From: a virus
Direction: 5' to 3' (one strand)
Virus record (IMG/VR): IMGVR_UViG_3300045971_000149
Location: 32,001-96,000 of that record
Length of the DNA: 64,000 bases
The number at the start of each line of letters is the position of its first letter. The first letter of the stretch is position 1. Shown here one piece after another: positions 17,590 through 36,178 of this stretch. The translations under genes and the position numbers were made by a program. The notes below the pieces were generated by a model. It saw nothing but the letters and a program-made list of their open reading frames with translations. It was not told the origin of the DNA and did no database searches.

Positions 17590-18402
17590 TTAGCAGCGGT
17601 CCCAGTTGTTCTTCACATAGGTGCGTGCCAGTGCAGCCTTCATGCCTAGTGCCACGATGCCGTACTGCACAGCCTTCTCAAACGCTTCGCTGCCGCTGTC
17701 TGCTTTAGCTATAGTAATGTATGCACGGATGCGCTCTGCATTGCTGCTGCCACTGTGCTGTGCTACTACAGGCATACGCATACGCGCCATGATGTCTACA
17801 GCCTTAGCAGGAGCAATGGGTGCTGCCACCTTAGTCACTGTGGGTGCAGTCAGCATGGATGCGTTAGTCATTGTGTACGGCTGTGCCTTGCTTACGCGAC
17901 CCTTGCCGCGGAACATGTAGGATGCGCCGCGTGTCTGTATCTTGCGATGTATGACAGGGCTAACGGCAACAATGTGGCCAGTGGATGTAGTGTATGCATA
18001 CGGCTTAGCCTTAGCCACTGCTTCGGGTGCGTCTTCTTGTTTGTAGCAGCGTGAGCCATTGCCGCCTAGTGCTACACATACACGCTTCCAGCCTGCATCA
18101 TGATTGCGTCCAAACTGTGGAAACGCTTGGCATACACTGTGCGCGACTTCATGCGGCACTGTGTCGTTTAGGATGTGTTCCCAGCTCTGGCCACCAAGGC
18201 GCATATGCACAGTGTTGAAGCGCAGGTACATGTCATGTGCAGTACGCTCAAAGCGATCAAGCTTGCAGCCTGCCATACCAGCAGCACGGCCAGTAAGGTC
18301 GAAGCGGATTTGGATTGCGGGCATCTTAATGCCAAACTTGCTTTCTGCAAGGGCGATACACTGTGCAACTTTGGCTTTGACTGCTTCGACTTTTGCTTGC
18401 AT
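17590..18402 (-). CDS. SprT-like zinc metalloprotease
   Basis: TVPHEVAH (HExxH), GRNHDAGWKRV, GRAAGMA. Confidence 0.85.
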   Translation of the reverse strand: MQAKVEAVKAKVAQCIALAESKFGIKMPAIQIRFDLTGRAAGMAGCKLDRFERTAHDMYLRFNTVHMRLGGQSWEHILNDTVPHEVAHSVCQAFPQFGRNHDAGWKRVCVALGGNGSRCYKQEDAPEAVAKAKPYAYTTSTGHIVAVSPVIHRKIQTRGASYMFRGKGRVSKAQPYTMTNASMLTAPTVTKVAAPIAPAKAVDIMARMRMPVVAQHSGSSNAERIRAYITIAKADSGSEAFEKAVQYGIVALGMKAALARTYVKNNWDRC

Positions 18403-18485
18403 GTTATGTCCTACTGTTTGTTTGCTATGTGTGTATTATAACAAAGAACGACGAGACTGTCAAGTCCCGCCGCCCTGTAGGGTTA

Positions 18486-19373
18486 TCAGTTAGTCAGTAC
18501 GTACTGCGCAATGGCTTTCCAATTGCCGCCTGCTGCCCGAAGCTTTGTCACTGCTTGCAGTGTGCGCAGGCTAAGCTCTTTCACTTCGCCTTGCACGGAG
18601 CGGATAAGTGCCATCGCGTCGTCTTTATGCTTTTGGCTGTACTGCGGCATGAAAGTTGCACTGCTTGTCATATGCTGCATGCGTTCCACTTTCTGATCGC
18701 TTGTCATCTTCAAGTCAATGCAGTAAGCACGAGTCAACAGTGCGTTGGCTACTTGCTCGCGGCGCATGTTAGAGATGAAGATGATGCGTCCTTGGAATAC
18801 AAAGCTACGCGGCAGGTCGTCGTCTTTCATGTCTGCGTTCCAGCTAATCACTCGCTTGTCGTAGCTGTCCAAAGCGCCCTTCAGCAGGTTCAATGCAGTA
18901 GCATCTTTGAGCACATCGTCGCAGTCATCAAACACTAGCACACTGTCGCGATTCATGTACAGCTCGCGATACAAGCCCTTAGCAGTGCTATAGCCTTTGA
19001 TCATCTTGTATGCTTTAGACGGGGCGTCGCTTTCGAAGCTAGACACATCCTCAAGTCCGTTTGCAGCGAGTGCTTCCTTCACAGTGTGCGTCTTGCCCAA
19101 TCCGCCGGGACCAGTGATCAGTACGCTAGTCGCGTTGCCTTGTGCAATCATGTTAACGAGCTGCGTCACAAACTCGAAGCGCTGATTGATTGGCCATTTA
19201 GTGTCTTCGCCGTCTTGCGGAGCAGTGACATCTTCGCTTGCAGGCACAGTGACCTTGTGTCCCGCCTTAGCCATCATCTTCACAACGCGAGTCTGGTCGT
19301 AGGACTTAACGACTTTCTTTCCCATGTACATGCCAATCCAGTTGCCGTCTGCATAAACAATTTTAGCTTGCAT
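18486..19373 (-). CDS. AAA+ ATPase (paralog 1)
   Basis: GPGGLGKT, VLVFDDCD, LLKGALDS; start moved to MQAK after AAGGA RBS. Confidence 0.85.
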   Translation of the reverse strand: MQAKIVYADGNWIGMYMGKKVVKSYDQTRVVKMMAKAGHKVTVPASEDVTAPQDGEDTKWPINQRFEFVTQLVNMIAQGNATSVLITGPGGLGKTHTVKEALAANGLEDVSSFESDAPSKAYKMIKGYSTAKGLYRELYMNRDSVLVFDDCDDVLKDATALNLLKGALDSYDKRVISWNADMKDDDLPRSFVFQGRIIFISNMRREQVANALLTRAYCIDLKMTSDQKVERMQHMTSSATFMPQYSQKHKDDAMALIRSVQGEVKELSLRTLQAVTKLRAAGGNWKAIAQYVLTN

Positions 19374-19460
19374 TTCGTTTCCTTTTACTGCTTCGTTTAA
19401 CATGTATGTATTATAGTCTCATTGTGCAGAACAGTCAAGTCCCGCCAACTTGTAGGGTTA

Positions 19461-19664
19461 TTAGTAAGAAAGTGCTTTGGCTAGCGTCGCAGCATTCAAT
19501 GCGTTTTGCGCATCATACAGTGTGGCCGTTGCGCGGGCTACTGTGGCGTTAGATGCTTTCTCGCTGTTGTTTGCTACGTGGTACGCTACTAGCGCATCGG
19601 CGTATGCGAACACAAGTGCTTTGACTGTTCGATTGTGCTGCGCTGCGACTTTGACTGTTGCCAT
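19461..19664 (-). CDS. Small early hypothetical protein
   Basis: Own promoter and AAGGAG RBS. Confidence 0.7.
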   Translation of the reverse strand: MATVKVAAQHNRTVKALVFAYADALVAYHVANNSEKASNATVARATATLYDAQNALNAATLAKALSY

Positions 19665-19740
19665 GCTGTACTCCTTGTTGCGATGTATGTATTATAGTCT
19701 CATTCAACGGAACTGTCAACAACCCTATGATCCATAGGGT

Positions 19741-20085
19741 TATTGTGAATAGGTGCTGTTCGTTTGGACTCTTACCACAGTGTTTCCCGATATGGCTAAC
19801 CGGCGCGGTTGATCACCGCAAAGGACATAGACAGCTTAGTCCTACTGTTTACTTCTCGCCTGATCAGGACGACTAGTTAGTTAAGGCGTTTCGAGCGATG
19901 GAAGATTTTACACTGTCTTGCGACTGAAGTGACTCCGTCTTTCGATGCGCTGTATGGCACCGGCCCCACTACCTTATTGTAACATGCTCGGGGAATACTG
20001 GCCCATTGCCAATCACTAGATCGGGTGAACGTTCAAACCTAAACACATTACAATAAGGGCACTGTAGTTTCCTACAGTGCTGTAC
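19741..20085 (-). ncRNA. Candidate structured ncRNA
   Basis: No ORF; GNRA-capped stems and long G-U-containing helix on minus strand. Confidence 0.5.
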
Positions 20086-20089
20086 CTAC

Positions 20090-20359
20090 TTACAGTACAA
20101 AGCCCAAACGCTGGCCTTCTTCAGCGACAGCTTGCGCAACATCCAAATCGTCGCAAACCCAATCGCTGTTAAGCAAAGCGTCTACGCAATCTTCTTGTCG
20201 CTCTGCTTGCGCCAACTCAATAAAGCGCACGTCAGTGTGACCGTTACGCTCCAGCACACCCTTACGGCCTTTGCTGTTAGCATAGCGCACAGCAAACACG
20301 CCGTTTTGCTTGGAAACGCCGACGAAAGTAAAAGTGTTTGTGTTAATGTCTTTTGCCAT
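20090..20359 (-). CDS. Early hypothetical protein, paralog of 31112..31549
   Basis: GVSKQNG..VRYAN..VLERNGHTD. Confidence 0.75.
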   Translation of the reverse strand: MAKDINTNTFTFVGVSKQNGVFAVRYANSKGRKGVLERNGHTDVRFIELAQAERQEDCVDALLNSDWVCDDLDVAQAVAEEGQRLGFVL

Positions 20360-20443
20360 TTTTAACTCCTAGTGTGTTTGTGTATGTATGTATTATAACG
20401 CCGTTTTGCTTTACTGTCAACTACCCTATGCACTGTAGGGTTA

Positions 20444-20671
20444 TTAGTATTTCTGTACGCGGATGATCTGATGCAAGTAAGCCCAGCTGCCGTTCTTGTC
20501 ATCGCCGCTTGCCAACGTGTAGCCAATGCCGGGAATGCCGTTCTTTATGTCTGCATCCACTTCGTCGACAATAGCGCGGACGCCCATGCCGCTGCCGAAG
20601 TTTGTGGCAACCCAAACGATGCTTCCCACCTTTACGTCGCGTAGTGTAATCATATAGTCCTTTGTTTGCAT
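20444..20671 (-). CDS. Small early hypothetical protein
   Basis: Own promoter; true start may be second Met at 20653. Confidence 0.7.
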   Translation of the reverse strand: MQTKDYMITLRDVKVGSIVWVATNFGSGMGVRAIVDEVDADIKNGIPGIGYTLASGDDKNGSWAYLHQIIRVQKY

Positions 20672-20723
20672 GTATGTATTATACTCTCAAACTGCAGAAC
20701 TGTCAACAACCCTATGCACCGTA

Positions 20724-20775
20724 GGGGCTTTATTGTGTTAGGCACAATCGCCGTCCATCCCCGCCTTGTTCGAAG
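20724..20775 (-). ncRNA. Candidate promoter-driven small RNA
   Basis: Promoter TTGACA(20804)/TACAAT(20781), no ORF before next promoter; shares GGGATGGACGGCGA with the 36.2-kb transcript. Confidence 0.5.
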
Positions 20776-20812
20776 TATGTATTGTAACACCTTCGATCAA
20801 GTTTGTCAATCC

Positions 20813-21058
20813 CTATCGTAGATCACCAAACAGGCTGAATCCAGTCTTGGGATCAGGAAGATCTGCGTTGTCGATTGGATGTATGACAGGCTCATCCTCT
20901 TGTTCAGCTTCGTCGGACAGCTTGATCAGGTTGAGCTCCTCCCATGCTCTCCACAGGTCGTAGTCAGGATCGCCAGTGTTGCTTTCCATAGCGGCTATTC
21001 CTTGTTGCAGGAACTGCAGGGCGATCTTAGCCCGGATGAGTTTCTCTTTGTGTTTCAT
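20813..21058 (-). CDS. Small acidic early protein
   Basis: AAGGAAG RBS; 81 aa. Confidence 0.7.
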   Translation of the reverse strand: MKHKEKLIRAKIALQFLQQGIAAMESNTGDPDYDLWRAWEELNLIKLSDEAEQEDEPVIHPIDNADLPDPKTGFSLFGDLR

Positions 21059-21070
21059 GTTATTGCTTCC

Positions 21071-21211
21071 TTAGAATATGATTACTTCGTCGCCGTCGTC
21101 TTTAACTTCGTCGATCGGGTTAGTGCAGTCCCACTCGCCACACCACACAGTTACCTGCTTGTCCTGATCCATACGAGACAACATCTCCATCAATTCGCGT
21201 ACAGTCATCAT
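21071..21211 (-). pseudogene. Small early gene with apparent frameshift
   Basis: MMTVRELMEMLSRMDQDKQVTV continues in another frame as GGEWDCTNPIDEVKDDGDEVIIF; shift at a TG run. Confidence 0.45.
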
Positions 21212-21267
21212 CTACTCCTTTGTTGCTATGTATGTATTATACTCTCTTTTGGACAGAGTGTCAACCG

Positions 21268-21495
21268 CTATCGCACTTCGAATCGACCTTTAGCGTCACG
21301 AGCTGGATTGCGATAGATGTCACGATAGCTGCCAGATGCTAGTTGATAGACTGCGATGTCGCGTTGCTCTGTCTTCCAGAGATTGTATACAAAGTTGCAG
21401 CATTCGCCTAGACTGTTGCTTTCAAACAACACCACAGCGTCATCATCGTGTGCCAGCTTGAACTCGGGATTAAGGTAGAAGCATTGGTATTCCAT
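21268..21495 (-). CDS. Small early hypothetical protein
   Basis: MEYQCFYL start after AAGGA. Confidence 0.65.
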   Translation of the reverse strand: MEYQCFYLNPEFKLAHDDDAVVLFESNSLGECCNFVYNLWKTEQRDIAVYQLASGSYRDIYRNPARDAKGRFEVR

Positions 21496-21496
21496 C

Positions 21497-21658
21497 TTAG
21501 ATCTTTGCGTCCTTAACCATAGCTTGACAGAAAAAACGGTAGCCATTGTCGCCACCAACAGACATACCACCTTGCAGTTTCCAACCATCTTCCAACATCT
21601 CGTTTACTGTGTCAGTGAGTGCGTCTGCGCTGGATTCTTGAACTGCAAAATATTCCAT
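21497..21658 (-). CDS. DUF1737-like small protein
   Basis: Manual translation: VNEMLEDGWKLQGG...FCQAMVK. Confidence 0.65.
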   Translation of the reverse strand: MEYFAVQESSADALTDTVNEMLEDGWKLQGGMSVGGDNGYRFFCQAMVKDAKI

Positions 21659-21709
21659 TGTGTGTCCTTTGTTGCTATGTATGTATTATACTCTCTTTTG
21701 GACAGAGTG

Positions 21710-22252
21710 TCAACCAAAGTCCCGTGCCATCTTGTACTCGCAACGAGCAATCTCTTCCAACTGCTCCTTGATGCTATGCAAGCGATCATACAGGCGTTCC
21801 ATAGCCATATCCTGCTCAGGACCTTCGCCCAATGCACCTTCCTGGTATGCATCCAACTGCTCCTGGATAGCGATCTGCTCTTCGCACAGGTTGCCCACAT
21901 CGCCTACCATCACCTTAGGAACCATAACCTTAGCCACTGCGGCAGCGGCCTTCTCCTGTGCAATCTCTACCAACTGGCCTGCATACTTGTTGATGCGCGG
22001 CACACCTTTCACGTTGGGCTTGCGCCAGTATGCGATCTGCTTGTCGGACAAGCGGTTGAACTTGCTGTAGAAGTTAGCCATTGACGTGCCCATACGTGCA
22101 TCGGCGGGTGTGAAGCCAATGCCGTTCTGGTAGCGGGTCTGTTCGCTTACTTGCTCGTCACGCACTTGGCGTTCGTTGAGCACTACCAAAGCACGGGCAA
22201 TGGCCTTGTTAGAAGTGTTCAGCAGGTCCAGGATTTGTTGCTTGCTTGTCAT
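21710..22252 (-). CDS. Conserved phage early hypothetical protein
   Basis: 180 aa, NGIGFTPADA motif; own promoter. Confidence 0.75.
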   Translation of the reverse strand: MTSKQQILDLLNTSNKAIARALVVLNERQVRDEQVSEQTRYQNGIGFTPADARMGTSMANFYSKFNRLSDKQIAYWRKPNVKGVPRINKYAGQLVEIAQEKAAAAVAKVMVPKVMVGDVGNLCEEQIAIQEQLDAYQEGALGEGPEQDMAMERLYDRLHSIKEQLEEIARCEYKMARDFG

Positions 22253-22287
22253 ACAGTACTCCTTGTTGCGATGTATGTATTATACAA

Positions 22288-22467
22288 TCAAACAGAAGCC
22301 TTGTCAACCTCTTTCTTCAGTTCGCTGTAGTTCTTCATCACAAAGACGTACTCGTCCTGTGTGAGTTTTGTTGCAGAAGCAGCTCTAGGATCGAGCATGT
22401 TCCACTTGCCGCTGCGTTGCACCTTGACGTAGGCTTTGAAGTCTTTCAGTTGCTTTGCTGTAAACAT
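22288..22467 (-). CDS. Small early hypothetical protein
   Basis: MFTAKQ; VQRSGKWNMLD..NYSEL. Confidence 0.7.
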   Translation of the reverse strand: MFTAKQLKDFKAYVKVQRSGKWNMLDPRAASATKLTQDEYVFVMKNYSELKKEVDKASV

Positions 22468-22527
22468 TGTGTCTCCTTGTTGCGATGTATGTATTATACA
22501 ATCAAACTGCAGACCTGTCAACCGGAA

Positions 22528-22701
22528 TCAGTACGTCTCTTTGTGGATTGTGAACTGATCTGCAGGATACTTTGCTTTGAACTCATCCGTAGCCATGTAC
22601 TCGCGCAAGGCTTTGGCGTCAAAGAACACCTTACTCAGGACCGATTGTAGCTTGCCGATTGGGCACACTGTAAGATAGACTGACTTCGCTTTACCTGCCA
22701 T
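22528..22701 (-). CDS. Small early hypothetical protein
   Basis: Manual translation MAGKAKSVYLTV...; AGGAG RBS. Confidence 0.65.
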   Translation of the reverse strand: MAGKAKSVYLTVCPIGKLQSVLSKVFFDAKALREYMATDEFKAKYPADQFTIHKETY

Positions 22702-22811
22702 TAGAGTTCTCCTGTGATCAAATAGAATGCCAAGTCGGCATCAAAGGGTTCCCAAGGGACGATACATTCCAATCCTACCCAATGAATGTACTCGTTGCTG
22801 AATGTAGACAT
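22701..22811 (-). CDS. Very small early protein (36 aa)
   Basis: MSTFSNEYIHW after promoter and AAGGA. Confidence 0.5.
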   Translation of the reverse strand: MSTFSNEYIHWVGLECIVPWEPFDADLAFYLITGEL

Positions 22812-22844
22812 ATCGTTCCTTTGTTTGTGTGCTATTATAACACG

Positions 22845-23216
22845 TTATTGCAGATTGAGCAACTCTTTTTCTTCCTGGCTCAACTTCGCAAGGGCGTTCT
22901 GACGAACCAAATACTTGCGCTCTGCTTCGGCACGTTCTTCTTCTTTCCACTTCACTGCCCAGCTTAGGTCGTCCAAATCAGACTCTGCATCGGTGCTGTA
23001 GAAGAAGTCGACTTCGAAGTAAGTGCGATCGCGTTTGTCCAGATCAAACAGGCTAAACGTCATGTCGTTGCGAGCAGCCATTTCAAAGTTCGCGTGTTGG
23101 GCACGTTGCAGGACTGCCATCAAACGATTTGGGTAGGATGCCTCTTGTTCTTCAAGCATTGCCTGACGCACTACTTCTTCCCGGGCCATACGCTCTGCTT
23201 TAGTTTCTTTTGCCAT
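22845..23216 (-). CDS. Early hypothetical protein
   Basis: MAKETK; C-term ALAKLSQEEKELLNL. Confidence 0.7.
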   Translation of the reverse strand: MAKETKAERMAREEVVRQAMLEEQEASYPNRLMAVLQRAQHANFEMAARNDMTFSLFDLDKRDRTYFEVDFFYSTDAESDLDDLSWAVKWKEEERAEAERKYLVRQNALAKLSQEEKELLNLQ

Positions 23217-23376
23217 TTCGTTCATCCTTTTTGTCTATGCGTTAATTATAGCAAGGTTTTACCAAAGCGTCAACACCTATTTCAAAGACCCTACAGGGTG
23301 ATGGGATAAATAAAAGTGCCGCTCGCGACACGCCAATGTCCAGCAGCTCTAACAGTTTATAAGGAACTAATCAGCA

Positions 23377-23727
23377 ATGTATTTACACTTCTATGTCTAC
23401 GCCTATCTGCGTATTGACGGCACACCCTACTACAAAGGCAATGGTGATCGAGCTTACGCAAAACACCGCATTCCTGTGCCAAAAGATCGATCGAGGATCG
23501 TGTTCCTTGAGACAAACCTAACTGATATCGGCGCATTGGCAATTGAGCGCAGACTGATTGCTTGGTACGGACGCAAGGACTTAGGCACAGGTATCTTGCG
23601 TAACCTTACAGACGGCGGCGAAGGTTCAAGTGGAGCAACTAGATCACAAGAAACTCGCGATAAAATATCAGCCGCAAAGAAAGGCATACCTGCTCATAAC
23701 AAAGGAAAAACGAGTAGGAAGAGTTAG
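23377..23727 (+). CDS. Degenerate GIY-YIG (Seg-like) homing endonuclease with NUMOD3-like tail
   Basis: [14 protein letters not shown](--)[32 protein letters not shown]; opposite strand to neighbours. Confidence 0.75.
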
Positions 23728-23771
23728 TTCCTACTGTTTGTTGCTATGTATGTATTTTACAACCGAAATGT

Positions 23772-23927
23772 CTACTTGTCAAGTGCTGTTAGGTCTTTTT
23801 TCAACCATGCAAGGTTAGTGGAACTCATCAACCGCAGACCATGGCGGAAGGCTATGTAGACTGACTTGGCGCCGCCTACGTGCTTCTCAATTATGAAAGT
23901 CTTGTACTGAAACCTATCTTTGATCAT
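23772..23927 (-). CDS. Small early hypothetical protein
   Basis: MIKDRFQYK. Confidence 0.55.
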   Translation of the reverse strand: MIKDRFQYKTFIIEKHVGGAKSVYIAFRHGLRLMSSTNLAWLKKDLTALDK

Positions 23928-23928
23928 G

Positions 23929-24120
23929 TTAGGCAACCTTTGTGATCTCACCGCGCCAGTAGCACTCGTAGGATCCACCGTCCCAACGTGCCTTGTAGGC
24001 CTGCGCTTCTTCCAGTGTTGTAAAGAACTTGGTGTCACTTGGATCGCAGCGTTGACCCCAACCTGCTTCGTACTCGGTGATCACTACCTTATACAGTGTT
24101 CCCATCTTGACTTCGGACAT
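23929..24120 (-). CDS. Small early hypothetical protein
   Basis: MSEVK; EYEAGWGQR; AAGGAG RBS. Confidence 0.7.
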   Translation of the reverse strand: MSEVKMGTLYKVVITEYEAGWGQRCDPSDTKFFTTLEEAQAYKARWDGGSYECYWRGEITKVA

Positions 24121-24170
24121 TTGCTTCTCCTTACTTGATGTATGTAGTATAACGCCGATCAGAGAAGATG

Positions 24171-24365
24171 TCAACCAACGAACTCCCTAACCCAATGAAA
24201 CCGTGTTGTAGCAGGCATCCACCGATACTGTTGACGCCTGCGTTCCTCTGTCTCAAAGTCGTAGCAGACGCAAACCCAACCGCGGTCTTCGGAGAACGCC
24301 ACCTTGTCAGCGACCTTCACAACCTGTACATACCTGCCGTCCATCATCTTTGCTACTATCATCAT
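24171..24365 (-). CDS. Small early hypothetical protein
   Basis: AGGAGG RBS; stop inside next -35 box. Confidence 0.7.
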   Translation of the reverse strand: MMIVAKMMDGRYVQVVKVADKVAFSEDRGWVCVCYDFETEERRRQQYRWMPATTRFHWVREFVG

Positions 24366-24429
24366 ATCGCCTCCTAGTCCATGCATGTATTATAGCAAAG
24401 AATAAAGACCCTGTCAACTGATGGGAATT

Positions 24430-24713
24430 AAACGGTTTACAGCAATGTTTCAGGTGGTCTGCGCATTAGCGACAACAGCAGCGATTCTACCGCTGTACGT
24501 CTATCTGAGGCCTATATAAATCAATGACTTACGTCGCCTTAACCGTAGCATCTGAGACAACTTTAAGTAGATCAAATAAACGAGCCGTTCCGCAGGAGTA
24601 GGCAACAGTGTGAAGCTCGCCCTTATGCCCACACGTTCCACTCCGAACACAAGGGCAATCACATCGGAAAGGGCACACCTGCCCAATTGGGATCCTGCCC
24701 TGCACAAGGGTGC
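24430..24713 (-). ncRNA. Candidate structured ncRNA
   Basis: 14-bp G-U-rich helix with possible pseudoknot; no credible ORF. Confidence 0.45.
24519..24531 (+). promoter_or_regulatory. IHF consensus site
   Basis: AATCAA-TGAC-TTA matches WATCAANNNNTTR with AT-rich 5' flank. Confidence 0.55.
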
Positions 24714-24839: not shown

Positions 24840-24851
24840 AGTGTTTCCTTG

Positions 24852-26810: not shown

Positions 26811-26889
26811 AAAGCCCTTTGTGTTGTTTAAGTATGTATTATAACGCAAAGAAGGGCTACTGTCAACAATAGCCCTTCACGTTAGTCAA

Positions 26890-27150: not shown

Positions 27151-27230
27151 TTCGTTTCCTTTTGCGTTTAAAAATGTATTATAACAGCAAAGCGCAAAGT
27201 TGTCAACAACCCTACGCTTTACTCAACTAC

Positions 27231-27904: not shown

Positions 27905-27925
27905 TTTCGTTATCCTTTGTTATTT

Positions 27926-28801
27926 TTAAATTCGACGCATGCAGGTAGTCTTGCACATTGCTTGCCAGCTAGCAGGAAAGCTCTTGCGCAAGTCAGCAAC
28001 CTTCAACACCATACGTAGTGACAGTTCGCGCAGCTTATCCTTGTTGTCATTAATAAACTTAACAACCTCGGCTTCCACTTCGGGCTCGAACTCGTAGTTA
28101 GCAAGCATCTTTGCGCCGGTAACCACTTGGTGTATACGCAGCATCTTTTCACGTTGCGTATCCATTTGCAGATCGATATAGTGACAACGGCTTTCCAATG
28201 CTGCCAAGTGCTCCTTCAAACGTTTAGACTTAACGTGCTCAAACTTAATGTTAGTAATAAAGATCGCAGAACCTTTAAACTCGAAACGATCCGGGATGCC
28301 TTCGCCACGCAGCAAGCGGCTATCAGTGTTCCAGCTAATCCAACGCTTCTCGGAACTGTCCAATGCACCTTTCAAGATGTTCAGGCTAATCTCGTCCAAC
28401 AGCACAGAGTCGCAGTCGTCGAATACAACCACACTACCTTTAGCAGAGTACTCATACAGCTTGCGGTACAGGCCTAGTGCGCTAATAGCACCACCTTTGA
28501 CGATTTCGTACTTTGGCTTCTTATTGGCAAGCTTAGTGAACAGGTCATCCTTTTCCAGGACTTTCTCAATACCAAAGGACTTACCAACACCAGGAGGGCC
28601 ACTAACAATCATTGCACGTACATCGCCGCTCTTCACAGCCTTTGCCATCTCCGTTAGGATCATAAAGCGTTCTTCAAGACGCGCAAGGATCTCTTCGTCG
28701 GTTTCGCGGGCCACCTCTTGCTCACGTGCTTTGATCTTATCGTGATCAAACTCAAGTACTGTTGCGCCTGCGGATGCTTTTTTGGATGCTGCTGTTGCCA
28801 T
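27926..28801 (-). CDS. AAA+ ATPase (paralog 2)
   Basis: GPPGVGKS, VVVFDDCD, ILKGALDS, ALESR. Confidence 0.85.
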   Translation of the reverse strand: MATAASKKASAGATVLEFDHDKIKAREQEVARETDEEILARLEERFMILTEMAKAVKSGDVRAMIVSGPPGVGKSFGIEKVLEKDDLFTKLANKKPKYEIVKGGAISALGLYRKLYEYSAKGSVVVFDDCDSVLLDEISLNILKGALDSSEKRWISWNTDSRLLRGEGIPDRFEFKGSAIFITNIKFEHVKSKRLKEHLAALESRCHYIDLQMDTQREKMLRIHQVVTGAKMLANYEFEPEVEAEVVKFINDNKDKLRELSLRMVLKVADLRKSFPASWQAMCKTTCMRRI

Positions 28802-29099: not shown

Positions 29100-29108
29100 G
29101 ATAGTTCC

Positions 29109-29243
29109 TTACTTCTTAGGCTTGACTTGCTTTGCTTCTTGTGCAGCGATCTTGCCGCTGTAGGCCTTGCCTGCTTTGTGGATAAGGCCGGTCTTTGTGT
29201 AAACAATTGTACCGCCAGTGGATGATGCTTTGGATGCTTGCAT
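29109..29243 (-). CDS. Small basic early protein (44 aa)
   Basis: MQASKASSTGGTIVYTKTGLIH; own promoter. Confidence 0.65.
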   Translation of the reverse strand: MQASKASSTGGTIVYTKTGLIHKAGKAYSGKIAAQEAKQVKPKK

Positions 29244-29302
29244 TGTGTATTCCTTTGTTGCTATGTATGTATTATAACGTCTATCTTCTAACCTGTCAAC
29301 CT

Positions 29303-29557
29303 TCAGGGTTCAAACCACTCGGTGCTTTCAACACGAACGAGCTTAGTGCGGGTGAGATGATGGAACTCAGGATCTTCGTCCTGCTCTGCCATCTCCTGGA
29401 AGAAGAAGTGATAATCCTCACCGCTGTCTTCGTCCAATGCACAGAAGGCACCTTCGTCAAAGTCTGTCCATTGCATACGCAGCCACATGCCACCGGGCGT
29501 AACATAGAAGCAAGCACCTTCAGCCGCTTCAAAGATCTGTTTAGCAGTGTATTTCAT
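29303..29557 (-). CDS. Small acidic early protein
   Basis: 84 aa. Confidence 0.7.
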   Translation of the reverse strand: MKYTAKQIFEAAEGACFYVTPGGMWLRMQWTDFDEGAFCALDEDSGEDYHFFFQEMAEQDEDPEFHHLTRTKLVRVESTEWFEP

Positions 29558-29706
29558 TCTGTTTCCTTTTCAACGAATTCGACGTTGTCAATGTCTTCGC
29601 CACGCCCGGGCTCCAAATTAGTCCAGATGGCATCAGCAACCCAATTGCGGGGATGTGATGCTTCATCGTCCAGGATCAAGTCAAAGGATACGCGGTATGT
29701 TTTCAT
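29554..29706 (-). CDS. Small acidic early protein
   Basis: MKTYRVSF after GGAG. Confidence 0.65.
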   Translation of the reverse strand: MKTYRVSFDLILDDEASHPRNWVADAIWTNLEPGRGEDIDNVEFVEKETE

Positions 29707-29707
29707 T

Positions 29708-29872
29708 TCAGTAATCTCCGTAGACTGCGTCAAGTTGCTCTTCAAAGTCAGCGATGATCTCTTCCACAATCTCCTGCGGCACAGAAGTAATAGCAGCAAT
29801 CTCGTCAGCAGCAAGACCTTGCTCGTCGTACAGCTCAGTAATCTCGCAGTACAGTTCTTTCATTTTGGACAT
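29708..29872 (-). CDS. Small very acidic protein, HTH-like
   Basis: MSKMKEL..GLAADEIAAITSVPQEIVEEII. Confidence 0.65.
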   Translation of the reverse strand: MSKMKELYCEITELYDEQGLAADEIAAITSVPQEIVEEIIADFEEQLDAVYGDY

Positions 29873-29942
29873 TGTGTGTTCCTTTGTTGCTATGTATGTA
29901 TGTATTATAACAGCCTTTTTACGGGCTGTCATCAAAGACCCT

Positions 29943-30191
29943 TTACACTAGTCGGAAATTCTTGCTGAGGAACTTTGACACTTTGCTGTAACCGTGCTCC
30001 TTAATCAGCTCGCTCACCAGTGCGTCTGCTTCGGGCGCATTGCCGCAAGTGGTCATACGATCTGCATCCAGCACCATTTCGATTGCATCCCCATTGGACT
30101 CGCAGAACTCCATAGCATCGGAACCAATGTAGTTCCAAGTTGCGTAAACGGCTTGATTGAGTTGGGAAATAACTGTTGCGTCTAGCTTCAT
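29943..30191 (-). CDS. Small early hypothetical protein
   Basis: Own promoter/RBS. Confidence 0.7.
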   Translation of the reverse strand: MKLDATVISQLNQAVYATWNYIGSDAMEFCESNGDAIEMVLDADRMTTCGNAPEADALVSELIKEHGYSKVSKFLSKNFRLV

Positions 30192-30290
30192 ACTGTACTC
30201 CTTGTTGCGATGTATGTATTATAGCGCCTATTGAAAAAACAGTCAAGAGAAACCCGCCACAAAGGACGGGTTTAAGTGAGCTAGGAAAGC

Positions 30291-30563
30291 TTACAGAGTG
30301 ATGCCAAGTGCACGCGCCTTGAAGCCCAATGCAACGATCTCACGGCTTGGACGTCCGAGTTCGTATTCTGTGACTACAACGCCATTGCCAGCAGTGCGAG
30401 TATTTGCGTAGACTGCGTATCCGAATTGACGGATACGTGATGCTTCTGCGCGTAGATTGCCAACTGAGAAGCGATTACGTGCTTCTGCTTGTGTCAACTT
30501 CTCGCCTGCTGCCAATGCTGCGAATACCTTACCGGTCTTAGTGTCTTGATTAATCTTCTTCAT
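30291..30563 (-). CDS. Winged-helix DNA-binding protein
   Basis: LTQAEARNRFSVGNLRAEASRIRQFGYAV pattern typical of small phage wHTH. Confidence 0.6.
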   Translation of the reverse strand: MKKINQDTKTGKVFAALAAGEKLTQAEARNRFSVGNLRAEASRIRQFGYAVYANTRTAGNGVVVTEYELGRPSREIVALGFKARALGITL

Positions 30564-30625
30564 TTGTTATTCCTTGTAATACTGCTTAACAGTTAATACA
30601 AGTATAACAACAACGATTTGGTAAA

Positions 30626-30847
30626 TCAAGCACTTATCTTGCCAAATTCCTTTTTCGTGTGATAGTTAGCCAGCATCTCGTGTACCATACTAACTACATT
30701 GTCGTGATCTTCAGTTAGAAGGAACTGAACAGGGCTTTTACTCCAAGAGCGGTTCTTCAAGAACTCTGAATAGATATCACGATGCTTCTTGTCCGCCGGA
30801 TTGAACATTACAGTCGGACGGCCATAGTTTTGCAAAACGCTTGCCAT
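30626..30847 (-). CDS. Small hypothetical protein
   Basis: FNPADKKHR..SWSKSPVQF. Confidence 0.7.
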   Translation of the reverse strand: MASVLQNYGRPTVMFNPADKKHRDIYSEFLKNRSWSKSPVQFLLTEDHDNVVSMVHEMLANYHTKKEFGKISA

Positions 30848-30848
30848 A

Positions 30849-31070
30849 TTAGCTAGACTTTATAGAAGATTTAAACAACAAGCCGCACAGGACATTGATT
30901 CCTAATGCAGTCCATACAGAGTTGATTGGATGAATTCCGTCAACAACTCCTACCAAGCAATCATTCCATAGCCACATTGTAGGGTATGCAAACAGCAATG
31001 CCATTACCACAACGATTGCAACAATGCCAACGATTCCGACAATAACAACAAACAACTTATCCATATTCAA
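30849..31070 (-). CDS. Small membrane protein
   Basis: Two hydrophobic segments, MWLWN. Confidence 0.7.
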   Translation of the reverse strand: MNMDKLFVVIVGIVGIVAIVVVMALLFAYPTMWLWNDCLVGVVDGIHPINSVWTALGINVLCGLLFKSSIKSS

Positions 31071-31111
31071 CTCCAGTTAAAGTACTATACAGCGGGGTCT
31101 TGGGTATTGAA

Positions 31112-31549
31112 TTAAACCAATGCTTCGCCAACGGCCTTAAGTGCTTCGTCGTCGGTAAGCTTCTTCTTAATAACTGCCTTTGCTTCGGCGATAGTCACGA
31201 GCGGGCCAGTAGGGCCTTCAACTGCGGGCAGCTTAGCCTTAACAGCTTTAGTCTTTGCAGGAGCTTCCTTCTTGGGCTTGTCTTTGGATGCAGCTTTAGG
31301 AGCGGGTTCGGAACGCTTGTCAACTTCAGCTTCCAATGCAGCACGGATCTCTGCTTTGCCGTTGTCAAAGTCAATGCCGATCAAATATGCAACTGCATCT
31401 TCCTTGGACATTGGGTGTTTCAATTCCACGATATCAATATCAACGTGGCCGTTCTTTGCAAGCACCTTAACGCGCATTGCGTCATTGGCATAGCGAACTT
31501 TGTATTCGCCGTTCAGTTTAGATACGCCAGCATGTGAAAAAGTAGTCAT
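31112..31549 (-). CDS. Early protein, paralog of 20090..20359, with Lys/Ala/Pro tail
   Basis: GVSKLNG..VRYAND..VLAKNGHVD. Confidence 0.75.
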   Translation of the reverse strand: MTTFSHAGVSKLNGEYKVRYANDAMRVKVLAKNGHVDIDIVELKHPMSKEDAVAYLIGIDFDNGKAEIRAALEAEVDKRSEPAPKAASKDKPKKEAPAKTKAVKAKLPAVEGPTGPLVTIAEAKAVIKKKLTDDEALKAVGEALV

Positions 31550-31635
31550 TTGTAGTTCCTTCTGTGTGTGTTTTAAACAGCACCTTGCTGTCTATGTGTT
31601 AATTATAACGCCTAATGGAAAATTCGTCAACCAAT

Positions 31636-31749
31636 TTATTGTTGTTTTTCTGCAACAATATTGAAGCCTGCTTCGGCTTGCTCATCTGCTTCGTATTGTG
31701 TATACACTGTGAACAGGTACAGTTCACCGTCCCAAATTTGATAGCTCAT
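31636..31749 (-). CDS. Very small acidic protein (37 aa)
   Basis: MSYQIWDGELYLFTV; overlaps upstream stop. Confidence 0.55.
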   Translation of the reverse strand: MSYQIWDGELYLFTVYTQYEADEQAEAGFNIVAEKQQ

Positions 31750-32165
31750 TCCGCATCCTTTGCCATAGCTGTAGTCAGGTCTTCAAAACCGTTGTCGTCA
31801 ATGTTCACATACCACTTGCCGTCAGTACGCAGGATGTAGTCAAATCCTTGCATGTCTCCGCTGTTTTGGTAGTGCAGGAAGTCAGTAAAGCGTTCCTTGC
31901 CTTGCTCAGTATCACCGCGATCGCGTCCGTAGAACACGCATACGCCCTTCTGTGCGTTTTCGAACCAATGTGCCCCGGTTGGCTCAACAGCCGCAGCAAG
32001 GACGGATACATTGCCCAAATCGATTAGCTTTTGCAGCTTGAACGGATCGCTGTAGCTATCGCGCAAGATGCGTCCATTGTGCGACAAGTAACCATCCCAG
32101 TGGCAATACACTTGCTCTACTGTGCCGTCTGCATACTCGAGTGCGATCGTGCTGTTTGTGCTCAT
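31746..32165 (-). CDS. Conserved phage early protein
   Basis: VYCHWDGY, FYGRDRG motifs. Confidence 0.75.
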   Translation of the reverse strand: MSTNSTIALEYADGTVEQVYCHWDGYLSHNGRILRDSYSDPFKLQKLIDLGNVSVLAAAVEPTGAHWFENAQKGVCVFYGRDRGDTEQGKERFTDFLHYQNSGDMQGFDYILRTDGKWYVNIDDNGFEDLTTAMAKDAE

Positions 32166-32215
32166 TACGTTCCTTTGTTGCTATGTATGTATTATAGCGC
32201 CTTTCGGCGCTGCTG

Positions 32216-32455
32216 TCAAACGATGCTAGCAATAACCACTTTACTAGCAGGGTCAAACTTCAAGTACACTTTTGCCTTTACAAGCTTATCTACCTCCAGC
32301 ATTGTTACAGCATAGCAGAACTCACTGCCGTTAGTTAAGCCCAAAAACTTTGCACTTTGGAACAGCATATTCTTGTTCCCTTGTGCTTCCAACGTAAGCG
32401 CAAGACCTGCGTCGTCGTATGTAGTAAGCATCTTGAGCTGTGCGGCTGTGATCAT
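32216..32455 (-). CDS. Small early hypothetical protein
   Basis: MITAAQL; own promoter. Confidence 0.7.
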   Translation of the reverse strand: MITAAQLKMLTTYDDAGLALTLEAQGNKNMLFQSAKFLGLTNGSEFCYAVTMLEVDKLVKAKVYLKFDPASKVVIASIV

Positions 32456-32505
32456 GTATACTCCTTGTTGCGATGTATGTATTATAGCGCCTTTCGGCGC
32501 TGCTG

Positions 32506-32880
32506 TCAAGCCTTCCAGTTGTAACGCGGATCGTACTCTTTGTTGATCTTTTGTATAGCTTGAAACGCAAACTCCTGCGACTTGCGCACTGCAACCTTCA
32601 CCTTACCTGCACGTTGCTTCTTAGCTTCGTACAGCGACTCGTACCATGTAGCGCCGTGGTCGGGGCTGTAGCGCATGGGCTTGTAATACTTTGTGCCCTT
32701 CAGCTGGCGCGTAAGGTAGCCGTAAGTAGTGTCAGTCCACTTAAAGCCACGATCGTAGCTGCCGCTTTGGCTGTTGCGCTCATACAACACAACAGTCACT
32801 ACATACTTGCCCAACAGGCATTCCTTGCCTTCGTTTGCTACATACTCTGCTACTACAGGTGTTGGGGAAAGTGTCTTCAT
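32506..32880 (-). CDS. Early hypothetical protein
   Basis: Own promoter/RBS. Confidence 0.7.
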   Translation of the reverse strand: MKTLSPTPVVAEYVANEGKECLLGKYVVTVVLYERNSQSGSYDRGFKWTDTTYGYLTRQLKGTKYYKPMRYSPDHGATWYESLYEAKKQRAGKVKVAVRKSQEFAFQAIQKINKEYDPRYNWKA

Positions 32881-32943
32881 AGTGTGTTCCTTGTTGCGAT
32901 GTATGTATTATAGCGTCTTTCAATAACCCTGTCAACCGATGGG

Positions 32944-33306
32944 TTATTCCCAGTTCACACTTATGTTGACTTCAACATCCTTTAGGCCGCCAGCGAGATC
33001 GTACTTGATGCCAGTGACGATAGCGCCGTACAGTACGTCTTTCAGTTGTGCTTTGACCTCTGTAACAAGGTCAGCGAGCAGATCGTCGAGCATGTCTTCG
33101 ACGCTATGTCTAACACCGCTTAGAGTTGCTTGCAGTTCGTCGCGTGTAGTGCCCATCTCACCGTCACCGTCGCACATCATGTCAACATAAGCTTCAGTTT
33201 GGTCGGCGAGCGCTTTACGCACGATTGCCTGCGCCACTTGCTTTTGTTTCCACATGATGTCGTGAGCGCCGAAGTTCTCTACAGGTGTTTTAACGATAAC
33301 GGTCAT
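32944..33306 (-). CDS. Early hypothetical protein
   Basis: GAGGAG RBS. Confidence 0.7.
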   Translation of the reverse strand: MTVIVKTPVENFGAHDIMWKQKQVAQAIVRKALADQTEAYVDMMCDGDGEMGTTRDELQATLSGVRHSVEDMLDDLLADLVTEVKAQLKDVLYGAIVTGIKYDLAGGLKDVEVNISVNWE

Positions 33307-33309
33307 ACA

Positions 33310-33546
33310 TTACTCCTCTTCTGTTGTAAACTCAGCTTGCAGTGCTTCTTTCCACTCGGAATTGCGTTCCACCCAATCGTGCACAAAGCCCAGCATTGCT
33401 TCCAATGCGCCGCTGTTATCTGCAAGGAAGTCTGTCACATCCCTGTAGCCGAGCACTTTAACCACTTGCTCAAACTTGCGCACGCCGCTATGGCCTTCGA
33501 AGCTATACAAGTTTTCCTGATCTAAATACAAGTCTAGTGCGTTCAT
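33310..33546 (-). CDS. Small acidic early protein
   Basis: FLADNSGA motif; own promoter. Confidence 0.7.
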   Translation of the reverse strand: MNALDLYLDQENLYSFEGHSGVRKFEQVVKVLGYRDVTDFLADNSGALEAMLGFVHDWVERNSEWKEALQAEFTTEEE

Positions 33547-33628
33547 TGTGTACTCCTTGTTGCGATGTATGTATTATAACAAAGAAACGGACTACTGTCA
33601 ACCAATAGCCCGCCGCCCTGTAGGGCCT

Positions 33629-33901
33629 TTAGAAGTACATCACCCGGGTGCGATCTGTGTTTTCAAAGCGTTCCGGGAAGTCCAGGATACCTTGCTCGTT
33701 ATAGCGAACGCCCGGGTTGCCTTCGCACTCACCGTTGATCAGTGATCGGAAGCCGCGATAGTTGCCTGTCTGATGCAGTACTGCTTCGAGCACGTTCATT
33801 GCACCTTGTCGCACATCAACACGATCGGGAGCACTGTTCTTGCAGATGCCGTTAACCATATCAGTGAGTTCCGAAACACTAAACGTTTTGCGCTTTGTCA
33901 T
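33629..33901 (-). CDS. Small early hypothetical protein
   Basis: LHQTGNYRGF; own promoter. Confidence 0.7.
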   Translation of the reverse strand: MTKRKTFSVSELTDMVNGICKNSAPDRVDVRQGAMNVLEAVLHQTGNYRGFRSLINGECEGNPGVRYNEQGILDFPERFENTDRTRVMYF

Positions 33902-33978
33902 CTTTAACTCCTTGTTGTTTAAGTATGTATTATAACGTCATTCTGCAATACAGTCAACCAAAGACCCTACAGTCTGCT

Positions 33979-34167
33979 CTAGTACTTTCCAGCATCCACA
34001 AACGTACGATCCTTAGCAAAGAAGGTCATTGGCTTGCTTAAGACTACGGGCTCGTTGGATCCTGCCTTTATGTATGCAAAGAGCCGTGTCTTGTCCGTAG
34101 AGAGCAAGTAGATGTGGTTGGGAGCTGTGACGCTCCACTTGGTTGTCTCCTGGAAGTATCGCATCAA
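33979..34167 (-). CDS. Small early hypothetical protein
   Basis: QETTKW..PNHIYLL. Confidence 0.65.
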   Translation of the reverse strand: MMRYFQETTKWSVTAPNHIYLLSTDKTRLFAYIKAGSNEPVVLSKPMTFFAKDRTFVDAGKY

Positions 34168-34496
34168 TCCATCCTGTCGTCTGCGTAGAACTTAACGCCC
34201 AGCCGTGCAGTAAGCAGATCAGCAGCAGCCTGCGCACCTGCGCTCAGTGCATCCACGCTCTGCGAATTGCTCTTGCTGGGATTCCACAGTTGATAGCCGC
34301 CGCCATATGTCTTAGAGAAGCCGTACTTCTTCAGTTCGCGCACAAGCTTAGAAGTGCCTTTCTCATAGGTCTTAACCCAGGCAAAACCGCAAGCACCGCG
34401 ATCACCGTGTTTGGAAAGGAATGCAGCGGTTGCTTTGGAAGCTTCCTGCATAGCATCTGCAACAGCGACCTTAACGTGAGTGTTAACTTCTTGCAT
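34164..34496 (-). CDS. Conserved phage early protein
   Basis: GACGFAWV, QSVDA motifs. Confidence 0.75.
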   Translation of the reverse strand: MQEVNTHVKVAVADAMQEASKATAAFLSKHGDRGACGFAWVKTYEKGTSKLVRELKKYGFSKTYGGGYQLWNPSKSNSQSVDALSAGAQAAADLLTARLGVKFYADDRMD

Positions 34497-34557
34497 ATCA
34501 ACTCCTAGTGTGTTTGTGTAAGTATGTATTATAACGCCGTTTTACAGAACTGTCAAC

Positions 34558-34869
34558 CTACATCGACCAATAAGATTCGTATGCGGGCGACATGAAGCAA
34601 GGAGTGTCCTCTGCTTCCATGTAGGGCAGGCCGGACATGAGGTTGATCCGCTCGACCATCTTCACGGGGCGCTTGCTGTACTCAGCGACTGCCATCACCT
34701 TCCATTGCACAACATCCTTGCCGTCTACAACGACCAACTCGTATCCAGTGTACTCTCTGTTCAAACGAGTACATTGTGCCTTAGCAGCACGTTCGGTCTT
34801 GTACTTGGACGGGAGCCAGTAGTGCTTACCGTAGGGCTTTTCCGTTCCAACATTGATTACATACCACAT
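34558..34869 (-). CDS. Early hypothetical protein
   Basis: C-term NLMSG..DTPCFMSPAYESYWSM. Confidence 0.75.
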   Translation of the reverse strand: MWYVINVGTEKPYGKHYWLPSKYKTERAAKAQCTRLNREYTGYELVVVDGKDVVQWKVMAVAEYSKRPVKMVERINLMSGLPYMEAEDTPCFMSPAYESYWSM

Positions 34870-34878
34870 ATCAAACTC

Positions 34879-35025
34879 CTATCGGTTGTTGCGACGCACG
34901 TTGATGTGCATATCGTAGCTGTCGTGATTGACTAAGCTATCCCATACAGTCCACTTGTCAGTAAGCTTACTGAAGAACACAGTGTCAATCAGCTTGCCAT
35001 TCAAGTACACGTTCCAAGCTTGCAT
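34879..35025 (-). CDS. Small early protein (48 aa)
   Basis: MQAWNVYLNGKLIDTVF..SLVNHD; own promoter. Confidence 0.7.
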   Translation of the reverse strand: MQAWNVYLNGKLIDTVFFSKLTDKWTVWDSLVNHDSYDMHINVRRNNR

Positions 35026-35067
35026 GTCTACTCCTTGTTGCGATGTATGTATTATAACACCGTTTGG

Positions 35068-35259
35068 CTACGCTGTCAACCTATAGAACGAGTGTATGTC
35101 GTTCTCTGCATCATACCGGATCTCAACATTGCCCACGGTGCAGTTATCATCTTCGTCTACTGCACAGGCAAACTCATTGACATCACTCCACGGCAGGTAC
35201 GGGTTAGTACATTCACCATCTGCGTCAAACGAGTCAACGCAGTTGCCAAGGTATGTCAT
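35068..35259 (-). CDS. Small acidic early protein
   Basis: MTYLGNCVDSFD. Confidence 0.65.
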   Translation of the reverse strand: MTYLGNCVDSFDADGECTNPYLPWSDVNEFACAVDEDDNCTVGNVEIRYDAENDIHSFYRLTA

Positions 35260-35260
35260 T

Positions 35261-35482
35261 TTAGCAATCCGGATCGTAGTCTGCCCACTCTTGGGCTTCA
35301 TCGGGCTGGCCGTCGTTCTCTTCTTCGTAGTCTTCATCAAAGCGCTCGCTCAACTCGTTAGCATCCAGCATGCCTGCAACGTCATCCTCGGACATGTACG
35401 ACATGCACATATCCACAACAGCTTCGTGGCTGATAGCGCCCTGGTCAAGCAGATCATACAAACGGTTAGTAGCTTTGCGCAT
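35261..35482 (-). CDS. Small very acidic early protein
   Basis: YMSEDDVAGML..DGQPDEAQEWADYDPDC. Confidence 0.75.
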   Translation of the reverse strand: MRKATNRLYDLLDQGAISHEAVVDMCMSYMSEDDVAGMLDANELSERFDEDYEEENDGQPDEAQEWADYDPDC

Positions 35483-35517
35483 AGTGTGCTCCTTGTTGCG
35501 ATATATGTATTATAGCG

Positions 35518-35871
35518 TCAAACAACGAAAGCGTCAAGCTTTCTTTTCAAAGACCCTACATTGCGAAGGGCTTCTTCAACCGCTTCGTTGATCATGTCAT
35601 CAGCAGTTCCGTCCGTAAGTACTTCTTTGGCATCCTCGTAGCAGCAACCTCCAACACAGGCATCGCCCATAGTATAGCCGTCGAGCAACACACGAACCCG
35701 CAGGAAGAACCAATCGTAGATGCCGTTATCGATCTTCTCACAGATCTCTTTTACATCCGGCGTATCAAAGCAATCGCGGGGATGTATGCTATCTTCGTAG
35801 GACTTATCCACAATGACTTCAAATCCGTCTTCACGTGTATAACGTTTGAGTTCGTCGTAATAGCGTTGCAT
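35518..35871 (-). CDS. Acidic early hypothetical protein
   Basis: MQRYYDEL; VGGCCY. Confidence 0.7.
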   Translation of the reverse strand: MQRYYDELKRYTREDGFEVIVDKSYEDSIHPRDCFDTPDVKEICEKIDNGIYDWFFLRVRVLLDGYTMGDACVGGCCYEDAKEVLTDGTADDMINEAVEEALRNVGSLKRKLDAFVV

Positions 35872-35881
35872 AGTGTGCTCC

Positions 35882-36085
35882 TTAGTATTCAATCAATGTC
35901 TTAACACCAAACATGTATCCCAGCTTGATCAACGAGCTGCGAGTAGGTTCGCAGGAGTTGTCGTCTAGCTTGAAGATCTCGTCACGCAGAGCATCGGGTG
36001 CAGCTTCAAACAATTCGTAGATGCCACGACCTTCTGCATCATTTAAATCCTTACAAGCTTCAGCGAAGTCTTTAAGAGTCTGCAT
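35882..36085 (-). CDS. Small early hypothetical protein (first of array)
   Basis: Own promoter/RBS. Confidence 0.7.
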   Translation of the reverse strand: MQTLKDFAEACKDLNDAEGRGIYELFEAAPDALRDEIFKLDDNSCEPTRSSLIKLGYMFGVKTLIEY

Positions 36086-36178
36086 AGTAGTTCCTTTGTG
36101 TTTAAGTATGTATTATAGCGTAAATCGGCAAAGCTGTCATCAAAGACCTTATAGTGTAGTAGGACTCTGGGATACCGG

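Follow-up and report, generated by a model that had tools for sequence, protein, structure and literature searches.

A single-strand array of early-gene cassettes in an uncultured jumbo phage, probably built from units of the promoter-early stem-loop type

The window analysed here, a 64,000-nt stretch of viral DNA corresponding to bases 32001-96000 of the 157,925-bp IMG/VR record IMGVR_UViG_3300045971_000149 (the contig labelled G000 below), carries on its minus strand an early-gene cassette array (17590..36140) in which 36 promoter-leader units and about 55 small open reading frames (ORFs) share a single transcription direction. The array is very probably a hyperplastic early-gene region, belonging to an uncultured jumbo myophage with a genome of ~350 kb and built from composite units of the kind described as promoter-early stem-loops (PeSLs) in the T4-type phages RB49/phi1, T4/PST and KVP40/nt-1 (Arbiol et al. 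2010, PMC2839356; Comeau et al. 2014, PMC4122927).

A unit was defined by the hexamers TTGACA and TATAAT, with at most one mismatch in each, separated by a 17-nt spacer. Between 18435 and 36140 this gave 36 units on the minus strand, 24 with a hexamer score of 12/12 and 12 with 11/12; 0 were expected by chance. Their -35 elements start at 36140, 35537, 35079, 34556, 33957, 33601, 32935, 32509, 32219, 31630, 30246, 29932, 29299, 28863, 27605, 27206, 26866, 26549, 26099, 25812, 25443, 25266, 24417, 24174, 23782, 23273, 22521, 22307, 21713, 21264, 20809, 20706, 20420, 19719, 19438 and 18463. A 26-nt motif spanning the -10 and the leader, searched with up to three mismatches, matched 18 times, always on the minus strand and between 19671 and 35514 (0.00 matches in shuffles), and TTGACA-N16-18-TANAATACATACAT was found exactly 18 times against 0 expected. 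Over the whole contig the leader motif occurs 20 times, on one strand and exclusively within the array stretch. An earlier note on this DNA had described a repeated TTGACA-N17-TATAAT-leader unit on the minus strand, followed by mostly unrelated small ORFs. Both observations hold, the latter with 54-57 ORFs and only two paralogous pairs; its figure of ~38 units was slightly high, there being 36 on the minus strand and one on the plus strand.

The leader is as striking as the promoter. The sequence ACATACAT follows the -10 in 23 of the 36 units and the full string ACATACAT(C/A)GCAACAA(A)GGAG is present in ~18. A Shine-Dalgarno (SD) sequence and a start codon are found in 34/36, with the distance from the -10 to the start codon clustering at 25-27 nt. 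An AT-rich discriminator of 7-8 nt separates the -10 from the predicted transcription start, and the predicted 5' untranslated region (UTR) is ~19 nt long, A/C-rich and unstructured, ending in a strong SD (AAGGAG). In an Rfam search a tRNA was the sole match, so the leader fits no known RNA family. The 20 nt 3' of the -10 hold 22.3 bits of information, compared with 21.5 bits for both hexamers and 6.9 bits for the spacer. The leader thus carries as much information as the two hexamers together; the earlier note had called its conservation far greater than promoter function needs. The spacer, which the note described as variable, is not free: its right half sorts into a few families (TTCTTTGT, AAAGGCGC, AACGGCGT and TGAGAG).

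The units are mosaics, in that the upstream segment, left spacer, right spacer and leader are each common to a different set of partner units. Within the leader, position 9 is linked to the form of the SD: C occurs with AAGGAG (11 to 1) and A with AAAGGA (6 to 0). Two pairs of adjacent units (32191/32481 and 21236/21685) are identical over about 37-50 nt and flank cassettes. The first pair (32191..32509, -), which has an identical -35, spacer GCAGCGCCGAAAGGCGC and -10, flanks one 79-aa gene, a layout that would be expected to permit excision of a single cassette. The second (21236..21713, -) is identical over about 50 nt and flanks one or more ORFan cassettes. Units 26071 and 32907, 6.8 kb from each other, match almost completely along about 75 nt.

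Strong hairpins, at the -35 or immediately upstream of it, were predicted in 7 of the 36 units (-14 to -24 kcal/mol). Six are at or below -19 kcal/mol with z-scores of -3.7 to -7.2, and that of the 25812 unit has -14.2 kcal/mol (z -2.7). In most of the seven the stem has the -35 hexamer at its tip, with a T-rich tail or spacer downstream. A full example is the unit at 33546..33622 (-), which consists of a predicted terminator hairpin with TTGACA in its loop (-23.3 kcal/mol, z -5.5), a T-rich spacer, TATAAT, ACATACATCGCAACAAGGAG and an ATG at 33546. Hairpins also cover the -35 at 26837..26887 (-), where CTTTGCGTTAT follows (-24.3 kcal/mol, z -7.2), at 27177..27227 (-), where a T-rich spacer follows (-23.4 kcal/mol, z -6.8), and in the last unit at 18434..18484 (-), upstream of a SprT-like gene, where terminator and promoter would overlap (-20.3 kcal/mol, z -3.8). 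These -35 hairpins are read as putative intrinsic terminators of the upstream transcript that overlap the next promoter; the 'few terminators' of the earlier account understated them.

The -10 and leader pattern matches 98 stretches of IMG/VR contigs. The relative G001 (353 kb, 99% complete) has 30 same-strand copies within 22 kb, 7-29 kb from one contig end, and the 210-kb fragment G005 has 31 same-strand copies; more distant metagenome contigs are also dense, with 12 units in 6.2 kb and 17 in 9.6 kb. The array of G001 occupies the matching slot, between homologues of a 334-aa ORF and of a glycosyltransferase that also bound the array here, and cassette content and order vary between genomes. 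By hand tally over loci L009-L106, ~26 of the 48 motif-bearing contigs of at least 30 kb end inside the array or within a few kb of it. Assemblies seem to break at arrays, as expected for repeats or for cassette differences within a population. The homologous region of cultured PA5oct contains no repeated promoter-leader units but tightly packed operons, so such an array is not characteristic of the closest phages in culture. No nucleotide-level relative emerged when the array and its flank were compared by megablast with 50,697 phage records. The best nucleotide identity found for relatives of G000 was about 73%, over single genes, and of two metagenome scans with ORFan cassette proteins one found nothing and the other only relatives that were 39-44% identical.

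Because no close relative of G000 was found, recombination breakpoints were taken from other clade members, using pairs of related loci 85-99% identical to each other (276 breakpoints, 69 non-redundant events). Breakpoints fell inside units in 127/276 cases (46%), compared with 29.8 (11%) under uniform placement. When only the breakpoints at gene junctions were counted, 144/193 were at promoter-carrying junctions against 56% expected (p about 7e-8). Nine clean presence/absence events were available, and in 8/9 the single unit found where the cassette is missing is an in-register hybrid of the pair that borders it in the filled genome, with the upstream flank of the first and the spacer, leader and gene of the second. 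The switch lies in GGTTGAC (the -35) or in the first spacer bases 7 times and in the -10/ACATACA stretch once. Such hybrid units are the signature of recombination between repeated units, as in PeSLs. The earlier note had named a fixed gene order in related phages, with indel breakpoints unrelated to the repeats, as the outcome that would speak against its proposal; the order is not fixed and the breakpoints concentrate in the units. Its view of the repeat as a recombination substrate stands to the extent that units are the preferred joints in relatives, but the -10/leader part accounts for only one crossover, most being at the -35 or the start of the spacer.

It might be argued that the units are expression signals only, one optimal promoter, leader and ribosome-binding site (RBS) having been selected for each gene, and that indel joints coincide with them as the gaps between genes hold the units. 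In keeping with this, 56% of the gene junctions in related loci carry a unit, and the general design (consensus promoter, short A/C-rich leader and strong SD) is common to the whole clade. A test of gene adjacency was weak, and canonical leaders were not significantly associated with ORFan genes, as a mark of young cassettes would be (rho -0.24, p 0.18). However, in-register hybrids at 8/9 clean indels are unexpected from arbitrary intergenic deletions, and the enrichment holds when only gene junctions are counted. Lineage variants occur at sites without obvious function, namely the CGAA between SD and ATG and the ACATACAT versus TAACACAT discriminator, and the linkage within the leader, together with identical 50-75-nt units in front of unrelated genes, points to copying rather than convergence. 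Selection for expression as the whole explanation is accordingly considered unlikely.

The leader variants themselves follow lineage. Of the 36 units here, 23 have ACATACAT after the -10 and none has AGGAGCG; among 49 units of a distant group, the counts are 0 for ACATACAT and 28 for AGGAGCG. Between G000, G001 and G005 the effect is small (0.589 within and 0.568 between, p about 0.008), and the clear signal of concerted evolution comes from the more distant lineage rather than from this comparison. As the leader is lineage-specific and its position 9 is linked to the SD form, the units are taken to be copies evolving in concert. The excess conservation of the leader is probably copying and recombination on top of selection for expression, and an extra hidden signal in it is not needed. 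One such signal would be a target for a post-transcriptional switch of the phage, with a RegB-like nuclease cutting at GGAG or a RegA-like repressor shutting off all early genes together. T4 RegB and RegA are the precedents, and the 5' UTR is indeed uniform, with GGAG in most units. Nevertheless, the leaders differ between lineages, so that the factor would have to co-evolve with them, and the RegB and RegA Pfam families had no match in G000, G001, G002 or G005, in searches that had no positive control and left the control genomes blank as well, so that absence is not shown. A switch of this kind seems very improbable.

The preferred explanation, a region of PeSL-type units, can be put as follows. 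Each unit would be an expression module of fixed geometry, in which consensus -35 and -10 elements on either side of a 17-nt spacer serve the sigma70 RNA polymerase of the host. The -35 hairpin found in about a fifth of the units, with its T-rich spacer, would end the upstream transcript, which would allow cassettes to be expressed independently straight after DNA entry. The ~60 nt common to all units would serve as portable homology, so that recombination from unit to unit could delete, insert or swap cassettes from promoter to promoter. It would probably be carried out by the phage's own RecA/UvsX-type system and would also homogenise the units within a lineage, and it is because of this homogenisation that the leader would be more conserved than expression needs. 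The cargo would be a fast-turning pool of small early proteins. Natural variation among relatives, i.e. other clade members, shows such a role of the units in recombination at the level of sequence. Outside the window G000 has a RecA/UvsX-like gene (G000:C1:26686-27480; a 355-aa open frame, PF00154 E 2e-16), and a RecA-like gene is found in G000 and in the complete relatives G001 and G002.

Several points weigh against this explanation. Neither the breakpoints nor the contig pairs are independent, so the p-values overstate significance, and a single sub-group of related contigs supplies six of the nine clean events. No close relative of G000 was found, and the evidence for recombination is that of other clade members. 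With a unit at 56% of junctions, and with viable indels confined to the gaps between genes, some of the enrichment would arise in any case. Gene adjacency is kept in relatives in 65% of cases without an intervening promoter and in 42% with one, a weak trend. The tracts of homology at the crossovers are short, with 8-16 identical bases within about 60 nt of about 90% identity. A convincing terminator hairpin is present in only about 7/36 units, and the mean folding energy of the unit regions (-12.7 kcal/mol) is only modestly lower than that of the control (-10.1 kcal/mol), the units outside that set being hardly more stable than control sequence. Finally, promoter, terminator and recombination activities are all predictions from sequence.

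A CCC-N11-GGG dyad occurs 13 times in the array, compared with 0-2 times for other spacings, in about a third of the units and at several offsets. It was considered as an operator conserved throughout the clade and rejected, as the arrays of the relatives G001 and G005 have no enrichment; it is better read as a putative stem-loop variant of this lineage. The dyad also bears on the possibility of a true integron-like platform, in which a dedicated site-specific recombinase, or a protein binding CCC-N11-GGG, captures and excises cassettes. Its enrichment in G000, a conserved winged-helix protein and a homing-endonuclease-like gene, both inside the array, would suit such a platform. No match to the tyrosine integrase family (PF00589) was found in G000 or in the two complete relatives G001 and G002, however, and none to the resolvase family (PF00239) in G000. 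The crossovers lie in -35 or -10 homology and not in the dyad, which is unenriched in the relatives and confined here to a third of the units at several offsets, and each cassette has its own promoter, unlike integron cassettes. A platform of this kind is highly improbable. The term 'integron-like', used in the earlier note, survives as a loose analogy and as that only, because there is no integrase, there are no attC sites and there are no promoterless cassettes; crossovers occur instead in shared promoter sequence.

Gene calling gave 54-57 ORFs, which encode 30-295 aa and number one to four behind each promoter. The two paralogous pairs are a pair of AAA ATPases (33% identity) and w20359/w31549 (45%). 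Five of 54 proteins have Pfam matches (the two AAA ATPases, a SprT-like protein, a winged-helix protein and DUF1737) and ~15 match PHROG families of unknown function. Homologues of ~25 of the 57 proteins are present in G001 in a partly scrambled order, while for 20/57, mainly encoded in the half at 19.4-27.5 kb, none of the related loci has a homologue. PADLOC matched 0/54 cassette proteins, which says little because its library is of defence and not anti-defence proteins. By analogy, the cassettes are presumed to have roles in host takeover or counter-defence.

These genes are pertinent to the suggestion that the array has a physical or titrating role, the 36 promoters acting as a sink for host RNA polymerase, or transcription pulling the genome into the cell as in T7, with the ORFs secondary. 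Very dense, perfect promoters on one strand would fit, as would the position of the G001 array 7-29 kb from one contig end. On the other hand, the strong SD and ATG are precisely placed and many ORFs are conserved as proteins across relatives, which implies that the products matter, and the contig ends of these IMG/VR records are not established as genome ends. Both forms of the suggestion are extremely improbable.

The most widely conserved cassette gene encodes an AAA-type ATPase (phrog_1250; 27926..28801, -), with homologues in 30 related loci, PA5oct and many T4-like phages. Its paralogue is the second AAA-type ATPase at 18486..19373 (-), and the array ends with the SprT-like metalloprotease-family gene at 17590..18402 (-; PF10263, E 7e-6). 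A four-gene operon at 30291-31549 (-) is preceded by one diverged promoter (31630), and three of its genes keep their order in at least 15 related loci. The last of the four encodes a winged-helix protein (HTH_39) of 90 aa (30291..30563, -) that is kept in 35 related loci. This operon is the conserved core of the early region.

On the opposite strand inside the array lies a 116-aa ORF with GIY-YIG-like and NUMOD3 features (23377..23727, +; PF07460, E 2.5e-4), which resembles a free-standing homing endonuclease of compact form. About 70 nt upstream of it is an ATAAATA late-type motif, and locus L054 contains two homologous copies. Adjoining this gene is an orphan unit (23713..23782, -), in which the promoter and a canonical leader are followed after ~45 nt by a predicted two-way terminator hairpin (23713-23735) with no SD or ORF. 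A second orphan or degraded unit (20781..20809, -) has TACAAT as its -10 and no convincing ORF, and the next unit is 100 nt downstream. Both orphan units look like insertion or deletion scars.

The array is anchored upstream by the 334-aa ORF (36493..37497, -), which is kept in G001 and 12 other loci; it has no family match and is not an integrase by Pfam or PHROGs. A tRNA-Met (CAT) gene (36350..36424, -) lies just upstream of the array, and the downstream anchor is the glycosyltransferase gene (15887..16552, -) whose homologue adjoins the array end in G001. The one plus-strand unit is a divergent consensus promoter (36179..36207, +) with a ACATGCAT leader, back to back with the first array promoter. 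It would read across both tRNA-Met and the 334-aa ORF in the antisense direction; it has no convincing ORF downstream and may give rise to an early antisense transcript.

The composition of the array also differs from that of its surroundings, with a GC content of 0.47-0.50 compared with 0.35-0.43 in the flanks. GC3 is 0.55 in array genes and 0.30 in 20 flanking genes (GC1 0.57 and 0.47; GC2 0.38 and 0.40), and the arrays of G001 and G005 are likewise 8-12 GC points higher than their own flanks. The shift in GC3 could reflect tuning of the early genes to the host tRNA pool, or a separate gene pool.

The nature of the phage was judged from the contig itself. CheckV gave a completeness of 44% for the 157,925-bp record, from which a full genome of ~350 kb follows. 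The window contains a tail sheath gene (5746-9102; 1118 aa) whose product is 37-42% identical to the sheaths of Atu_ph07, PA5oct and jumbo myophages of the Rak2/121Q type; T4-like phages are also among the tail-sheath matches, all of which are below 45% identity. The contig is a fragment of an uncultured jumbo myophage of roughly 350 kb, and the phage appears to be at best a distant member of the wider T4-type group.

If the array is read in this way, the PeSL design extends beyond T4-type phages in culture to uncultured jumbo phages (about 350-380 kb) that make up a widespread clade. This extension rests on natural variation, namely the in-register hybrid units at indels and the lineage-specific homogenised leaders. 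As the PeSL principle has already been published, current understanding is unchanged. The ~55 small early proteins, mostly without a known family, would form a fast-evolving toolkit for interaction with the host, and the units would be compact, strong and insulated expression modules. A bolder reading is that a dedicated activity homogenises and mobilises the units, making the array a self-renewing gene-capture platform of the jumbo-phage clade; candidates are the resident GIY-YIG-type endonuclease, acting through double-strand breaks, and a protein with specificity for the lineage-specific dyad or leader. If true, the codon usage of the array (GC3 0.55 against 0.30) would mark a separate, shared gene pool. 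Active mobilisation is regarded as quite unlikely.

Three known systems invite comparison. Like integrons, the array is one-directional, with small and mostly unrelated cassettes, a repeated flanking element and turnover between relatives. Unlike them, it has no IntI-type recombinase and no attC-like folded sites, its joints lie in ordinary homology, and nearly every cassette carries its own consensus promoter rather than relying on one shared Pc. The host-takeover module of Bacillus phage SPO1 packs 26 small early genes, whose products are made at once after infection, into 12.4 kb (PMC6873191, citing Stewart et al. 1998). Both systems have compact small early genes, short operons, strong host-sigma promoters and RBSs, and mostly unknown products. 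The SPO1 module differs in phage family and host and in sitting in the terminal redundancy; its promoters have not been described as recombination joints, and no cassette protein here has been shown to be homologous to an SPO1 protein.

The closest comparison is with the PeSLs. These combine an AT-rich region, a sigma70 promoter, an SD and an ATG with a stem-loop that occupies one of five possible sites, one of them over the -35, and the crossovers of their mini-circles map to the interval from the -10 to the SD or ATG (PMC2839356; PMC4122927). Here, by contrast, the carrier is an uncultured jumbo phage of about 350 kb that is distant from T4, and all 36 units form one contiguous block on a single strand. 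The array has no AT-rich upstream element, a strong stem-loop is found in only about a fifth of units, the leader from -10 to SD is unusually uniform (22 bits), and GC3 is 0.55 in array genes but 0.30 in the rest of the window. In the PeSL work, mini-circles and the activity of promoters and terminators were measured, by inverse PCR and reporter fusions (PMC2839356); the promoter and terminator activity of the array is predicted. The likenesses are nonetheless extensive. The units have a near-perfect TTGACA-N17-TATAAT, an SD and an ATG, and in some of them a stem-loop able to overlap the -35, in a repeat of about 60-100 nt. They are clustered, with a spacing of about 0.5-0.6 kb, in a hyperplastic region where the genes are small ORFans, and are found at the joints of indels and replacements between relatives, in this case clade relatives. 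The sequence of the stem-loop varies by lineage, and free-standing homing endonuclease genes are nearby. The earlier note had pointed to the PeSLs of RB49-type phages; the units agree with the published description of these, of sigma70 promoter, stem-loop, SD and ATG among ORFans (PMC2839356, PMC4122927), and each of the features by which PeSLs are recognised in sequence appears to be present in the array, wholly or in part.

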